Notes: generated by a model from the sequence alone, not told the origin. DNA of 64,000 bases from an uncultured Alphaproteobacteria bacterium (GCA_944391685.1 CALXUM010000009.1:10034-74033), one strand, 5' to 3'. Shown: positions 3,499-64,000, counted from the stretch's first letter. A program made the numbers and translations.

Positions 3499-3584
3499 GT
3501 TATTTGCCTGTTTTATGGTTAGGATGATTTTTTACAATCACTACTTGCGTTTTTACAAAATAAGTTGCTATTCCTCTCTTGACT

Positions 3585-4298
3585 GTGTAGCTGATGGTAA
3601 AAAGATAGACACCTATGGAGTTGACCATAGCGGTTTTACAACAAAGGACGAAATAGAATATCAAATGGCTCGGCAAAAAAGAGAAAATAGTTTGATAGAA
3701 GGTTATAACAACCAAGGAATAACAGAAAATTACCCTTTAATCAGGCACCAACTTTTGGGGCAAGGCTGATAATAACTACGGTTTCGGCAGTTCAAATATT
3801 GCCGATAATGTTAAAGTTGTCGCAAATCAACCACTAAATATTTCACAGCATCATGATGATTTGAAAGATGATTCAAAATATATTCCAAAATACTGGGAAA
3901 CGGCTGCTGATGGTGAAAAAGTGTGGAATTATGTACAGCAACAAGAAGGCAATGTCACTCCTAAAAAACAAAATCCTTTAAGTTATGTTTGGTCAGCCGG
4001 TAAAACATTTCCTGATATGCTTATAAATTATTTTGATTTGGCGAATAAAAATTTAACTGATAAATACAAACATGCATATATAAATTGTAGTGCTGCTCAA
4101 AACGGTAAAGGAGGTGCAGATGTTGCAACTGGCATTTCTAATGTTTGAGAATGGTATGATGTAAAGTCAAAAGCCAATACTATTGACAGTAGTGAGGCTG
4201 ATCAGTATGCTAATAAGATAGGAAGGCTTCTTGGGACAAAATATCCAGATGAGGATTGTGATGAAATTGTCAAAAAATACATTAAAAAGTACTATTAA
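3585..4298 (+). pseudogene. Repeat-headed cassette with serum-amyloid-A-like C-terminal domain (+1 frameshift at ~3740, TGA at 4146)
   Basis: DMLINYFDLANKNLTDKYKHAYINCSAAQNGKGG...ISNV*EW...SEADQYANKIGR aligns by eye with SAA DMWRAYSDM...DKYFHARGNYDAAKRGPGG...ISDARE...DSLADQAANEWGR. Confidence 0.65.
3621..3815 (+). repeat. Coding repeat copy A (DHSGF...EIEYQMARQ...GTNFWG...YGFGSSNIADN)
   Basis: 195-bp direct repeat of 5002-5196; 22 mismatches by manual count, mostly synonymous. Confidence 0.95.
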
Positions 4299-4461
4299 AA
4301 TAGCTGGAAAAGCTATTGGAATTGCTTTTTTGTTATATTTGCTTTTCTGTTTTGTTTCTGTTGTTATTTTGATATTTGGGTCCGGCTGGAGCTAAATTAA
4401 TATTACAGTTAAAGATAAGTCCAACAGTTTTTTTGAAACAGATAAACATGTAACTACATAA
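4261..4461 (+). pseudogene. Small single-TM protein overlapping the end of the SAA-like cassette (TAA at 4393; either 44 aa or interrupted)
   Basis: MKLSKNTLKSTIKIAGKAIGIAFLLYLLFCFVSVVILIFGSGWS* followed by 21 more open codons. Confidence 0.35.
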
Positions 4462-4477
4462 TCAACAAATTTAATTC

Positions 4478-4512
4478 AAAACACCGCTGATATTTCATTA
4501 GCGGTGTTTTTT
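4478..4512. terminator. Bidirectional terminator between convergent units
   Basis: aaaacaccgctga-loop-ttagcggtgtttttt. Confidence 0.8.
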
Positions 4513-4519
4513 GTTTTGA

Positions 4520-4759
4520 TTATTTATCAACCAGCAAGATTTCAACCTTTTTGCCGTAGTATTTTGCCAAAAGATGCAAAGCACCTAAGTTGACGCTGCC
4601 GCGGCCGAGTTCCAGATTATCTAAAATTCGTTGCGGGATGCCGGTTTCTTCACACACTTGATTAAAACGTAGTTGTTTGGAAATTCTGATATCGTGTAAT
4701 CTGGCGGCAAGAGTTTTCCTGCGTCGTCTTAAGTCATTTTTATCTTGTTTATAGTTCAT
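4520..4759 (-). CDS. XRE/Cro-C1-type helix-turn-helix protein, copy 1
   Basis: LHDIRISKQLRFNQVCEETGIPQRILDNLELG HTH pattern; GGAG RBS; 74/79 aa identical to 63264-63503. Confidence 0.9.
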   Translation of the reverse strand: MNYKQDKNDLRRRRKTLAARLHDIRISKQLRFNQVCEETGIPQRILDNLELGRGSVNLGALHLLAKYYGKKVEILLVDK

Positions 4760-4787
4760 TTTCTTAACTCCCTGATTTCTTATTTAT

Positions 4788-4820
4788 AAAAAGAAACCGC
4801 CTTAATTTAACTTAAGGCGG
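4788..4820 (-). terminator. Terminator/attenuator between the C4-like RNA and the HTH gene
   Basis: Minus strand ccgccttaa-gttaaa-ttaaggcgg-tttcttttt. Confidence 0.8.
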
Positions 4821-4948
4821 GGAGTTGACAACTGATCCAACTGACAGTCCGGGTTATTCGTGCATAGCCTTATATCCCCGGCTCCCCAAAGGGAAGTGGT
4901 TTGTTGGAGAAGGAGTTGTCACACTCCACAGCCGGAACACCCGACTGC
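4819..4948 (-). ncRNA. C4-antisense-like RNA with upstream a1/b1 target hairpin, copy 1
   Basis: GGGGAG...CTCCCC closing stem; a'=TTGTCA and b'=GTTGGA complementary to upstream a1=TGACAA and b1=TCCAAC; covaries with copy 2. Confidence 0.75.
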
Positions 4949-4955
4949 GAAAGTG

Positions 4956-4984
4956 ATTATAAAAAATATTGCTTAAAATGCAAT
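4956..4984 (-). promoter_or_regulatory. Sigma70-type promoter with overlapping ATTGC-N7-GCAAT palindrome
   Basis: TTGCAT-N16-TATAAT, identical in both module copies. Confidence 0.65.
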
Positions 4985-5001
4985 TAATTTATGAAAGATT
5001 T

Positions 5002-5196
5002 TTGACCATAGCGGTTTTACAACCAAGGATGAAATAGAATATCAAATGGCTCGGCAAAAAAGAGAGAACAGTTTGATAGAAGGCTATAACAACTAGGGAA
5101 TAAGTAAAGACTATCCTTTAATCAGGCACCAACTTCTGGGGTAAGGCTGATAACAATTATGGTTTCGGCTCTTCCAATATTGCCGATAATATTAAA
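5002..5196 (+). repeat. Coding repeat copy B (5'-truncated, TAG at 5094, +1 frameshift at ~5121)
   Basis: Direct repeat of 3621-3815. Confidence 0.95.
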
Positions 5197-5269
5197 AACA
5201 AACAAAACCAAGATATAAGTTCCGCATTATATCCCAAACCAAATAGGAAACGATGCCGCAAGTTATAAA

Positions 5270-5947
5270 TTGGCTCAGAATAATCAAGCTAATATGGTGA
5301 GTGATGCAAATACATTATCTGAAAATAATTTATCTGATGATGAATTAATAGAAACCATGTATCCCATTATAAAAGAGCATGAAAATGCAAAACCTTTTCC
5401 ATATTATGATACAAGGTGGAATAAAACTGTTGGCGTTGGTAATAATATTAACAATAAAAAAGATTTTTACGGCACAAATTGGTCTGCTGACAATATGCCT
5501 GCAAACAAACAAGATATAGACTCTTGTTTAGAAAATCTTGAAAAAGAAAAAAACAGAATACAGAAGGAACGAATTTTAGCAGGACTAAATCCTAATGAAC
5601 ACAATTATAAGGCTGATTATTTTGCTCAATTTTGTAACATAAATATTGATGACGATACAATGCGTCAAATGAGTATTGACCATATGAAAGGTGATTTAAA
5701 AAGTTTACGCAAATTAATTCAAAATTTTGATGAACTGAGTTTAAATAAAAAAATGGTACTCATGGATTACATGTATAATTTAGGACCAAATAAATTTACA
5801 GAAAAGGAATTTTCTAATTTTATTAAAGGTGCAAGAACTAATAATCTTGATTTAATGCTAAAACATGACCATCGTTTAGGTATTGACGAAGGACGTAATA
5901 TCTGGACGGATAAAACTCTTAGAAAAGATTTACCAAATAAAAAATAA
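5270..5947 (+). CDS. T4-lysozyme-like (GH24) muramidase domain, C-terminal part of the repeat-B cassette
   Basis: E-x8-D-x5-T triad (HE-NAKPFPYY-D-TRWNK-T-VGVG) and LMDYMYNLG motif. Confidence 0.75.
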   Translation: MAQNNQANMVSDANTLSENNLSDDELIETMYPIIKEHENAKPFPYYDTRWNKTVGVGNNINNKKDFYGTNWSADNMPANKQDIDSCLENLEKEKNRIQKERILAGLNPNEHNYKADYFAQFCNINIDDDTMRQMSIDHMKGDLKSLRKLIQNFDELSLNKKMVLMDYMYNLGPNKFTEKEFSNFIKGARTNNLDLMLKHDHRLGIDEGRNIWTDKTLRKDLPNKK

Positions 5948-61805: not shown

Positions 61806-62945
61806 ATGTATAAATTTTATGAAACAGGTTTTAAAAGTCAGAATTTATCTTTGAAGGAAAAGTTTCAAAATTTGAGCTTTGCTTATATTTTGTTCATTAT
61901 GTTGTTGGCGGCTGTCGGTGTAACAATGCTTTATTCGGCGGCGAACGGCAGTTGGAAACCATGGGCTTTAAATCAGCTGGTGCGTTTCGGTTTGGGATTT
62001 GGAGTAATGATTACCTTAGCCATGATTAATGTGCGGGTATTTTTGCGTTATGCTTATGTGTTTTATTTTATTGCATTAATATTGCTGATTATTGTGGAGG
62101 TTACCGGTCATATCGGAATGGGAGCTCAGAGGTGGATTAATTTGGGCTTTATCAAGCTACAGCCTTCAGAGTTGATGAAAATTGCTTTAGTTTTGGCTTT
62201 GGCAAGGTACTTCCATGCTTCTTCTTTGCAGAGTATTGAAAGTACTCGCGGTATAATTATTCCGGTTTTGATGGTTTTGTTTCCGGCTTTTTTGGTGATG
62301 ACACAGCCCGATTTGGGAACGGCTTTGATGTTGTTATTTTCAGCAGGAGCCATCTTTTTTGCAGTTGGTGTGCAGTTGTGGAAGTTTGGGGTTGTTTTGT
62401 TGGGGGCAATTATAACCATGCCCATAGCTTGGCATTTTTTGCATGACTATCAACAAAATCGTGTGTTGACATTTTTAAATCCGGAAAGAGATCCTTTGGG
62501 AGCAGGGTATCACATTATTCAGTCAAAGATTGCTTTGGGCTCAGGCGGTGTGTTTGGTAAGGGCTTTTTGAAGGGAACGCAAAGCCACTTAAACTTTTTG
62601 CCGGAGAAACATACGGACTTTATTTTTACGATGCTTTCTGAAGAGTTTGGTTTGATTGGAGCGGTGGCAATAGTTATACTTAACTTTTTGATTATTGCTT
62701 ACAGTTTTATGTTTGCATTAAGAAGCAGTAGCTATTTTGGTAAGCTTTTGGCGATTGGTTTGGCTACTAACTATTTCTTGTATGTTTCCATTAATATGGC
62801 AATGGTTTTAGGCTTGATTCCGGTGGTGGGGATTCCTTTGCCTTTAATTTCTTATGGCGGAACGGTTATTCTTTCGGTTATGGCGGGGTTTGGTATAATT
62901 TTGTCAGTGAATATTAACCGAAACATAAATATAGGTAAAGATTAA
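61806..62945 (+). CDS. rodA: Rod shape-determining protein RodA
   Basis: GAQRWI, QPSE, QPDLGT, PEKHTDF, SYGG. Confidence 0.96.
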   Translation: MYKFYETGFKSQNLSLKEKFQNLSFAYILFIMLLAAVGVTMLYSAANGSWKPWALNQLVRFGLGFGVMITLAMINVRVFLRYAYVFYFIALILLIIVEVTGHIGMGAQRWINLGFIKLQPSELMKIALVLALARYFHASSLQSIESTRGIIIPVLMVLFPAFLVMTQPDLGTALMLLFSAGAIFFAVGVQLWKFGVVLLGAIITMPIAWHFLHDYQQNRVLTFLNPERDPLGAGYHIIQSKIALGSGGVFGKGFLKGTQSHLNFLPEKHTDFIFTMLSEEFGLIGAVAIVILNFLIIAYSFMFALRSSSYFGKLLAIGLATNYFLYVSINMAMVLGLIPVVGIPLPLISYGGTVILSVMAGFGIILSVNINRNINIGKD

Positions 62946-62965
62946 GAAAAGCTTTAGCTGGAGTC

Positions 62966-63022
62966 TTGCCGAGCCATTTGATATTCTATCTCGTCAATGG
63001 AAAGAGAAGCCATTATACTCAA
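62966..63022 (-). repeat. Degenerate third copy (C) of the coding repeat
   Basis: Minus strand gacgagatagaatatcaaatggctcggcaa (DEIEYQMARQ) matches repeats A/B and abuts the module at the same junction as copy B. Confidence 0.85.
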
Positions 63023-63039
63023 AAATCTTTCATAAATTA

Positions 63040-63068
63040 ATTGCATTTTAAGCAATATTTTTTATAAT
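63040..63068 (+). promoter_or_regulatory. Sigma70-type promoter with ATTGC-N7-GCAAT palindrome
   Basis: TTGCAT 63041-46, TATAAT 63063-68. Confidence 0.65.
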
Positions 63069-63075
63069 CACTTTC

Positions 63076-63202
63076 GCAGTCGGGGGTTCCGGCTGCGGAG
63101 TGTCGAAACTCCTTATAGGTTAATACTCCTCTTTTGGGGAGCCGGGGATATAAGGCTATGCACGAATAACCCGGACTGTACCTATACAGTTTCGAACTCC
63201 CC
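63076..63202 (+). ncRNA. C4-antisense-like RNA with upstream a1/b1 target, copy 2
   Basis: a1 TCGAAA (63103-08) with a' TTTCGA (63190-95); b1 TATAGGT (63114-20) with b' ACCTATA (63180-86); GGGGAG/CTCCCC stem. Confidence 0.75.
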
Positions 63203-63234
63203 GCCTTAATTTGTTTTTAAGGCGGTTTCTTTTT
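63201..63234 (+). terminator. Terminator/attenuator upstream of the HTH gene
   Basis: ccgccttaa-loop-ttaaggcgg-tttcttttt; only the loop differs from copy 1. Confidence 0.8.
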
Positions 63235-63263
63235 ATAAATAAAGAAATCAGGGAGTTAAGAAA

Positions 63264-63503
63264 ATGGACTATAAACAAGACAAAAATGACTTAAGACGAC
63301 GCAGAAAAACTCTTGCCACCAGATTACACGATATCAGAATTTCCAAACAACTACGTTTTAATAAGGTATGTGAAGAAACCGGCATTCCGCAAGGACTTTT
63401 AGATAATCTGGAACTCGGCCGCGGCAGCGTCAACTTAGGTGCTTTGCACCTTTTGGCAAAATACTACGGCAAAAAGGTTGAAATCTTGCTGGTTGATAAA
63501 TAA
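63264..63503 (+). CDS. XRE/Cro-C1-type helix-turn-helix protein, copy 2
   Basis: 74/79 aa identical to 4520-4759. Confidence 0.9.
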   Translation: MDYKQDKNDLRRRRKTLATRLHDIRISKQLRFNKVCEETGIPQGLLDNLELGRGSVNLGALHLLAKYYGKKVEILLVDK

Positions 63504-63510
63504 TCAAAAC

Positions 63511-63548
63511 AAAAAATGGCGGCTTTAATTTCTAAGCCGCCATAAAAT
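63511..63548. terminator. Terminator between HTH copy 2 and the convergent gene
   Basis: atggcggctt-loop-aagccgccat. Confidence 0.75.
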
Positions 63549-64000
63549 TTAGATATCTGTGTTAAAATCATCAGGTAAATCAGACATATCCACACATTGT
63601 GATTTCATTTCTTGTAAATATTCTTGTACAATTTCTTTAACCTTTAAACTTGCATTGGTATTAACCTGAATCTCGTACATTGTACCGGTGTATAATTTCT
63701 TAGCCAGATCACTATTTTTAATCAAATTTTGATAATGCATATAGGTTGCCTCAATAACCTTATTAAAATCATTTTTGATATCCTCATTTTTATTTTTATA
63801 GAAAGAATCAAAAATTTGATATGCAACATCTTTTGAACATTTTGTTAAATTGTTATAAGCGTTAATCATTTCAATATCTGTTGCGTTATCAGGCATGTCA
63901 ATCTTGCAATTATCTAATTTATTTTCTAGTTGTTTTATCAATTTAGCATTTTCTCCAACACATTCAGATGCACAGATTAATGACGGACAAAACAATATAC
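63549..64000 (-). CDS. Secreted helical hypothetical protein (5' end outside window)
   Basis: Frame open to the window edge; end of signal peptide ILFCPSLICA; Cys-spaced helical body. Confidence 0.65.
   Translation of the reverse strand, partial: ILFCPSLICASECVGENAKLIKQLENKLDNCKIDMPDNATDIEMINAYNNLTKCSKDVAYQIFDSFYKNKNEDIKNDFNKVIEATYMHYQNLIKNSDLAKKLYTGTMYEIQVNTNASLKVKEIVQEYLQEMKSQCVDMSDLPDDFNTDI

Follow-up and report, generated by a model that had tools for sequence, protein, structure and literature searches.

A leader RNA and helix-turn-helix gene module joined to orphan effector genes at one shared base in an uncultured alphaproteobacterium

INTRODUCTION

The closest described counterpart of the locus studied here is the Brt/Trp system of Bartonella (Tu et al. 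2016/2017), in which a small XRE-type helix-turn-helix (HTH) gene is immediately preceded by a highly structured RNA of ~200 nt whose 3′ end resembles a terminator. According to that report (PMC5387305), the units are multi-copy (0–34 per Bartonella species) and located in plastic regions, cis control by termination and read-through as well as action in trans as a small RNA are proposed as roles of Brt, and the family is stated to be confined to Bartonella, with one Brt on the B. grahamii plasmid pBGR3. Here we analyze a repeated module of this architecture that lies next to toxin-like effector genes in an uncultured Alphaproteobacteria bacterium (GCA_944391685.1), and in particular the junction at which several copies of the module meet the effector genes at the same base. 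The stretch under study, hereafter the window, comprises 64,000 nt (CALXUM010000009.1:10034–74033, here C9:10034–74033) of a 1.57-Mb genome in 25 contigs; it starts with rplA-rplJ-rplL, a gap of ~4.5 kb and rpoB, and ends with mreB-mreC-mreD-mrdA-rodA. As in Brt/Trp, a structured RNA (~160 nt here) ends in a terminator and is directly followed by an XRE HTH gene, and copy numbers vary (0–27 per genome here). The host, in contrast to the Bartonella-only occurrence stated there, belongs to an uncultured alphaproteobacterial genus, its genome encodes MreBCD-PBP2-RodA, and the HTH protein carries a distinct C-terminal motif, YGKK.EI.L.D.

In polymorphic toxin loci, arrays of promoter-less, 5′-truncated cassettes keep part of the conserved region, and recombination in this region shuffles the cassettes. 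Orphan toxin/immunity cassettes are reported for Rhs (PMC3967940) and Neisseria MafB (PMC4287609) loci. The effector genes of the present genome resemble them in a conserved N-terminal region followed by variable C-terminal domains, in small immunity-like genes nearby and in promoter-less, 5′-truncated copies that keep part of the conserved region. They differ in that the effectors are short (~160–400 aa), that their N-terminal domain has no Pfam family and that at three orphans a regulator module, and not the preceding cassette, forms the boundary.

RESULTS

Three module copies meet the effector repeat at an identical base

The module, composed of a promoter, a leader RNA and an HTH gene, is present four times in the whole genome (M1–M4; Table 1), each time as a unit of ~500 nt in a toxin island. 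M1, M2 and M4 join the effector repeat at an identical base; M3 does not. M2, whose module is on the minus strand, has the junction atgaaagattttt/gaccatagcggtttt, and the break separates window positions 5003 and 5004. At M1 the minus strand reads atgaaagattttt/gagtataatggcttc...gaatatcaaatggctcggcaa from position 63033 down to 62966, with the break between 63021 and 63020. In the window we counted three occurrences of the 21-mer gaatatcaaatggctcggcaa (at 3656, 5037 and, on the minus strand, 62966), compared with none in 100 shuffles. Two nucleotides of microhomology (TT) are found at the joint. Beyond it, M2 and M4 are identical over the first ~14 nt and near-identical over ~25 nt, after which the M4 remnant bears an internal deletion. 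M3 shows the same module end followed by tcat and aacttttccaca, as normally found upstream of the effector genes, and then by an intact family-2 effector gene of 163 aa. An exact 24-mer of the upstream end of the module gave no match in metagenome contigs.

A preliminary description of the window, made from the sequence alone, had reported that two modules join the repeat at the same nucleotide, that repeat A has intact upstream coding sequence at this point and that at the other end identity stops just before different terminators and different convergent genes. All three observations were reproduced: both junction strings are present in the window and M4 on contig C17 has the same joint, KIDTYGV is encoded in frame directly before the joint point of repeat A, and a pairwise alignment of M1 and M2 shows ~91% identity from the junction to 14 nt beyond the HTH stop codon, past which the two copies continue into unlike terminators and unlike convergent genes. 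The RNA and HTH gene also proved to be, as proposed, a discrete repeated module that is physically tied to the repeat and lies in variable gaps beside core operons. Two details had to be revised. The segment 62966–63516 had been taken as one unit; the module proper starts at 63021 and the first 55 nt are an effector-gene remnant. The two copies described are real, and the genome-wide BLAST search that the description had called for raised their number to four.

Table 1. Coordinates of module copies, effector genes and associated features (window positions unless a contig is named; C, contig)
Feature	Position	Strand	Remarks
Module copy M1 (promoter, leader RNA, HTH gene)	63021..63516	+	91–94% identical to the other three copies
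Module copy M2	4507..5003	-	HTH open reading frame (ORF) 4520–4759, RNA ~4787–4948, promoter end 5003
Module copy M3	C14:22942–23434		
Module copy M4	C17:371–866		
Remnant of a family-1 effector gene (conserved 5′ region), 55 nt	62966..63020	-	From codon ~21; between rodA stop codon and M1; +1 indel
Putative promoter of M1	63041..63068	+	TTGCAT-16 nt-TATAAT, read by eye
Structured leader RNA of M1, ~160 nt	63075..63236	+	Helices P1–P5 and intrinsic terminator
XRE/Cro-C1-type HTH protein, 79 aa	63264..63503	+	30 nt 3′ of the RNA; C-terminus ...LAKYYGKKVEILLVDK
Terminator of convergent gene, type 1	63516..63543	-	Found at M1 alone
Signal-peptide/lipoprotein-like convergent ORF, 158 aa	63549..64000	-	Continues to ~64025 beyond the window
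45-nt element upstream of effector genes	3527..3571	+	Also at C14, C21, C4 and C9:78837
Repeat A effector copy	3583..4300	+	N-terminal region with joint point intact; +1 frameshift; serum-amyloid-A-like C-terminal part
Orphan family-1 effector gene B	5004..5947	+	Truncated at codon ~21; in-frame stop, +1 base
Lipoprotein-like ORF, 153 aa	5982..6443	-	Immunity candidate by position

The repeat is the conserved part of an effector gene family

A BLAST search of the whole genome with repeat A returned ~16 copies, at least five of which have a ribosome-binding site (RBS) and an ATG ~60 nt upstream of the joint point; intact copies encode MLNDYKSPLGYIADGKKIDTYGV/DHSGFTTKDEIEYQMARQ, the slash marking the joint point. 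The repeat therefore corresponds to ~100 conserved codons at the N-terminal side of a gene family, whose full-length members have 258–402 aa and differ in their C-terminal parts, among which we found matches to GH108 lysozymes (E 1e-15) and to serum amyloid A (SAA-like; E 1e-10 to 1e-16) as well as weak matches to Phage_lysozyme and SLT. The N-terminal region matched no Pfam family. Six copies are truncated internally at their 5′ side, at four different points: three at the module joint and three at other sites (query positions 368, 384 and 423 of the repeat-A search), where they adjoin other sequences. Judged by its sequence, the repeat family is organized like a polymorphic effector locus with orphan cassettes, in which the effectors are candidate toxins and the neighbouring ORFs candidate immunity genes.

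Origin of the shared junction

We compared the source genome with 55 others, giving a set of 56 species-level genomes of the genus; the relatives are bins of uncultured Alphaproteobacteria/Azospirillaceae bacteria. With a 141-nt query spanning the joint, the joint was matched in the source genome alone, whereas in the other 55 genomes the effector half or the module half was matched, never both together; the same query revealed no effector gene in the genus genomes that is interrupted by the module alone. The four copies are mosaic. The HTH gene (240 nt) is identical in M3 and M4 and differs at 17 positions between these and M1; in the P3–P4 segment of the RNA, M1, M3 and the orthologous module of the sister genome G006 differ from each other by 3–5 positions, but from M2/M4 by 10–16; and no difference was found between the terminators of M2 and M4. 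The module therefore contains recombination break points. At the right-hand side the ends are nested: divergence sets in 14 nt past the stop codon in M1 and after ~60 nt in M2, and M3 has more than 170 nt in common with M4. The G006 module is 84% identical, retains the M2-type terminator and lies in the rplL-rpoB gap together with the right-flank genes of M1, including a homologue of the 158-aa convergent ORF; it has the same upstream end, adjoining sequence that resembles the upstream regions of effector genes and of rpoB. Compared with G006, module copies have therefore exchanged their flanks. Downstream of rodA, no island is present in G006 and G004, the contig of G024 ends 78 nt past the match, and in G031 the content is different and includes another RNA copy, which is oriented oppositely.

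We consider it most likely that the junction arose as a normal side effect of recombination in toxin islands and has been inherited and copied. More precisely, one deletion would have fused the module to its divergently transcribed effector gene and recombination between islands would have copied the resulting joint; we assign this course of events a probability of about 0.6. The native layout would be that of M3 and G006, where module and effector gene would be transcribed in opposite directions from neighbouring promoters. One deletion or illegitimate join would then have removed the effector promoter and the first ~20 codons and left an orphan effector fused to the upstream end of the module; a single deletion of ~230 nt with the TT microhomology would give the M2-type joint. 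Homologous recombination or gene conversion, with module and effector repeat as portable homology, would have carried the joint into two further islands. We thus infer a single origin, and three copies would share one nucleotide because one ancestral joint was copied.

Several findings weigh against this history. The 15 nt of the M1 remnant nearest to the joint depart at six positions from all other repeat copies in the genome, and its next 40 nt are identical to a copy at C9:75905, 2.9 kb away, which is not what a recent copy of the M2/M4 joint would be expected to show. We read the M1 remnant as an old joint in which the neighbouring copy later converted the distal part, with the conversion tract stopping short of the edge of homology; an independent joining event is less probable. 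Furthermore, the upstream end of the module is the same to the base in the five close copies (M1–M4 and G006), next to two kinds of flank. In the strain of sequencing run X3, remnant and module start are identical to the window, but the end of rodA (62780–62888) shows eight differences over ~110 nt; this island edge suggests recombination or recent spread, and the pattern agrees equally well with recombination and with a recent lateral spread of the island. On the side of expression, the proposed TTGCAT/TATAAT promoter was not listed by a scan for consensus promoters, because its −35 element matches at 3 of 6 positions only, and all 13 of the 13 runs found are DNA runs, so that termination and read-through are predicted from the sequence.

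That an assembler jumped between repeats of a metagenome bin and produced a chimeric contig would be a trivial explanation for a shared junction. The genome is indeed a bin of 25 contigs, C9 ends within an effector repeat and the sequencing depth over the repeat is raised in all runs. The joint between rodA, remnant and module is nevertheless no assembly artefact, because independent contigs from other runs span it. Parts of the stretch are present in runs labelled chicken gut, feces and gut metagenome, and the contigs of runs X1–X3 (chicken gut) and X5 (feces) were aligned to it; in X2, X3 and X5 several stretches are without contig cover. A Logan contig of 539 nt (X3, record 20) covers 62615–63153 and thus bridges rodA, remnant and module, a contig of 119 nt (X2, record 11) covers 62966–63084 and another (X1, record 1) covers 62300–62995, the latter two with no differences. 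Continuations of the M4 type and into the intact gene appear as loose ends, the M4-type joint separately in X1. Misassembly, which the preliminary description had named as an outcome that would overturn its proposal, is hence extremely improbable and largely refuted by the bridging contigs. It is also conceivable that the joint arose repeatedly at fragile break points, microhomology-mediated deletions at TT giving the same product each time. An imperfect palindrome recognized by eye, ACCTATGG-AGTTGA-CCATAGCGGT, surrounds the effector side of the joint with the break in its loop, the module ends in a T run next to the TT microhomology, and the remnant of M1 is a variant different from that of M2/M4. 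However, the same two end points would be required twice, the other three orphans are truncated elsewhere, M2 and M4 are clearly of one origin and no further joint of this kind was found in the 55 other genomes, which makes repeated breakage quite improbable.

The remaining explanations attribute the joint to the module itself. As a small non-autonomous mobile cassette, it would have been joined by insertion, or by a recombinase acting in trans, at a preferred TT/GAC in the 5′ region of the effector genes, which would thereby be silenced or re-wired. This would account for the constant upstream end beside two types of flank, for the use of the same joint base by M1 although its remnant is another sequence variant than that of M2 and M4, for the 20–27 copies in some genomes of 1.4–1.7 Mb, often at contig ends, and for the identical island edge beside a diverged rodA in X3. 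But the missing 5′ half of the effector gene is absent from the other end of the module in all copies, the right ends are nested instead of fixed, the module has no terminal inverted repeats and its left and right flanks are no more similar to each other than shuffled sequences. In the four islands, neither the ORF listings nor Pfam searches of selected ORFs revealed a recombinase or transposase, and the joint is absent from the 55 other species, which hold both of its parts. Among 60 module loci of other genomes, an effector-family gene was found within 1.5 kb at one locus only (G006, listed twice). No joints were reported in the contigs of the aligned runs either, though contigs are poor at showing rare or excised forms. 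Miniature inverted-repeat transposable elements and integron cassettes offer the same mixed picture: like them, the module is short and repeated, has a sharply defined upstream end and occupies several genomic gaps, but it lacks terminal inverted repeats, target duplications, an attC-like site and a nearby integrase or transposase, and its downstream ends are nested. We therefore regard a mobile cassette as unlikely, and the site-specific insertion at TTGA within the repeat that had been suggested initially is not borne out. Of the composite, non-autonomous unit suggested beside it, a short shared composite (at most 55 nt of repeat plus the module) remains; it has no fixed right end and its copies are mosaic, for which homologous recombination is the simplest explanation. 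The idea of a phage or satellite remnant gained no support, the module being a gene pair found throughout the genus with an effector near 1 of 60 loci elsewhere. A self-contained recombination cassette, whose upstream end would be joined to a fixed 5′ site of the effector genes by a mechanism that depends on the RNA or the HTH protein, appears improbable to us; if it were true, the module would represent small elements of a new type, able to capture and silence effector cassettes and to redistribute them between islands.

Apart from these comparisons, two possible target duplications were picked out by eye, CATAGCGGT near M2 and AAGCC..CAT near M1, and rejected, as their local alignments were within those of shuffled sequences (207/500 and 489/500, respectively).

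The leader RNA is a widespread structured family

A conserved AAATTAATTGCA box, which is common to paralogues in other genomes, precedes the promoter of the module. The RNA downstream of it is composed of a hairpin P1, a long closing helix P2, a variable helix P3, a hairpin P4 with the sequence CUCC/GGGGAG and a helix P5 with an AUAAG/GAAUA internal loop, followed by an intrinsic terminator (63201–63225 plus a U tract) with a GC-rich hairpin of 9 bp that was also listed by a terminator scan. The minimum free energy is −70.5 kcal/mol (z −5.93). RNAalifold predicted 46 pairs, 23 of them with compensatory changes, from a MAFFT alignment of 38 distinct copies. We built a covariance model of the RNA, R1, and used it to align 48 copies: 43 of the 46 pairs were changed on both sides and 96.6% of the cells were paired in this alignment, which is fitted to the model. 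None of 500 shuffles reached the observed pairing, and structures slid by 1–3 columns paired to at most 52%. The GGAG and CUCC segments are repeated within the RNA and change together in distant members (GAAG/CUUC, GGUG/CACC), which hints at alternative pairings of these segments.

No match was obtained in the 64-kb window with Rfam 15 at the gathering threshold; at E ≤ 10, the region 62900–63600 gave chance-level matches only (U4, DdR10 and similar, far below threshold), and 13 related loci gave tRNAs only. In a BLAST search with the module, 23 of 36 other genus genomes contained the RNA part. With R1 (E ≤ 1e-5) the RNA was detected in 43 of the 56 genus genomes (0–27 copies per genome) and, outside the genus, in 12 (~8%) of the 149 genomes sampled, each from a different family of the class. 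In these other families, the genes 3′ of the RNA were assigned by eye: they are HTH-like at two loci, signal-peptide/lipoprotein-like at ~7 and of other kinds at the remainder. The RNA is thus a widespread and strongly covarying structured family that is in no Rfam listing, and within the genus the module is a regulatory gene pair of general occurrence.

More distant members of the RNA family (L092–L102 of other alphaproteobacterial families, and G000:C16:2170–2359 and C15:18567–18765) score 30–85 bits and precede lipoprotein-like, outer-membrane-like and pilin-like ORFs, not HTH genes. At one of these loci (L094) two tandem RNA copies are located 5′ of a glutamyl-tRNA-synthetase-like gene, and the copy on C16 adjoins a serine-recombinase-like ORF. 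A palindrome was noted at 63226–63256, formed by the U tract of the terminator and an A-rich stretch just 5′ of the RBS. It is found at the same place in paralogues, where its arms vary in step (TTTCTTT/AAAGAAA versus TTTTGTT/AACAAAA), and could be either a helix of the read-through RNA or a paralogue-specific operator.

When R1 was run with filters off on the plasmid pBGR3 (NC_012847), the best hit had 12.2 bits (E 0.04) and was not upstream of the HTH gene of the plasmid, on which the position of Brt is unconfirmed. Among the later Brt papers listed by a literature search, no title suggests a wider distribution. The resemblance to Brt/Trp would accordingly be one of function and architecture, homology being undetected on the one plasmid, pBGR3.

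The HTH protein belongs to the XRE/Cro type

The HTH protein of the window matches Pfam HTH_31 with 24.3 bits, under the cut-off of 27 bits, while 15 of the 18 aligned members of its family match this model at E ≤ 0.01. A profile of the family matches the structures of DdrO, C.BclI and HipB with E-values of 5e-8 to 2e-7. On these matches the 79-aa protein is classified as an XRE/Cro-type regulator. An HTH-like ORF of 71–120 aa follows the RNA at 26 of 29 loci, of the others two end earlier and one is ambiguous; HTH-likeness was assessed by alignment for 18 loci and by eye for the remainder. A tblastn search of all PLSDB plasmids with the HTH protein gave no match.

Further features of the islands and the window

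Repeat A is followed by a small membrane ORF (4231–4395). Its SAA-like ORF bears an in-frame TGA at 4141–4150 (ISNV*EWYD, the asterisk denoting the stop) besides the upstream frameshift, and effector A is probably a decaying copy. In effector B the lysozyme-like C-terminal ORF (5270–5947) is intact, and an intact homologous gene on C3 has a weak Phage_lysozyme match. Six effector copies have one extra base in common, cctttaatcagg versus ccc-gcaatatgg, by which the conserved YPQYGTNFWGKADNNYGFG segment is put out of frame (window 3725–3745 and 5105–5125; C3:56428, C3:57525, C17:3786 and C17:404). This base could point to a shared lineage of pseudogenes or to a programmed +1 shift. In G006 (locus L005 on C25, 2908–3496), a family-1 effector gene beside the module is split into two overlapping ORFs, one of 91 aa and an open-ended one of 115 aa; the source genome is therefore not the only one with effector decay next to a module.

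The 45-nt element upstream of effector genes includes the −35 region of the effector promoter. Paralogues of the 153-aa ORF with the same signal peptide adjoin other effector copies, and lipoprotein-like ORFs beside effectors are immunity candidates by position. By the same reasoning the 158-aa ORF at the end of the window is a candidate immunity gene of the next effector cassette. No match to a type VI secretion sheath gene (VipB/TssC) was found in the whole genome, and a homologue of the VirB4-family ATPase is encoded at C11:26702–27223; cell-wall-degrading effectors with lipoprotein-like neighbours may leave the cell via a type IV or another export route.

A scan of the 64-kb window for tRNA and tmRNA genes found none. 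No Rfam family reached its gathering score in the window, and this also holds for a ribosomal-protein leader 5′ of rplJ; the intergenic region before rplJ (660–998) is long, yet it has no match to an Rfam leader.

DISCUSSION

From the arrangement of the module we infer control by termination and read-through, DNA binding by the HTH protein and, possibly, regulation of effector promoters. A constitutive-looking promoter would drive the RNA, transcription would mostly stop at the terminator and leave a stable structured RNA, and only read-through transcripts, formed under some signal, would reach the HTH gene. Likely targets of the HTH protein would be the conserved box of the promoter or, alternatively, the palindrome that lies between the U tract and the RBS. 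The RNA shares with riboswitches and attenuators a conserved fold of several helices with an intrinsic terminator directly before an ORF, its occurrence upstream of varied genes in other families and the potential of its GGAG/CUCC segments to pair alternatively. It differs from them in a terminator that does not obviously compete with the main fold, and it has no Rfam match.

An operator shared by module and effector promoters was considered and discarded: a 17-mer taken from the module promoter matched at least 10 effector promoters with up to four mismatches, but it had 268 matches in the genome compared with 60–237 for shuffled queries. The resemblance between the two kinds of promoter is suggestive and was not used as evidence.

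If the junction originated by deletion and copying, as we favour, the regulator module would serve beside the toxin repeat as portable homology for the shuffling of effector cassettes. The RNA, which reaches 27 copies in genomes of 1.4–1.5 Mb, may be the more valuable result. With it the Brt/Trp architecture gains a structural counterpart outside Bartonella, and the RNA is a testable candidate for a new class of attenuators or riboswitches in host-associated Alphaproteobacteria.

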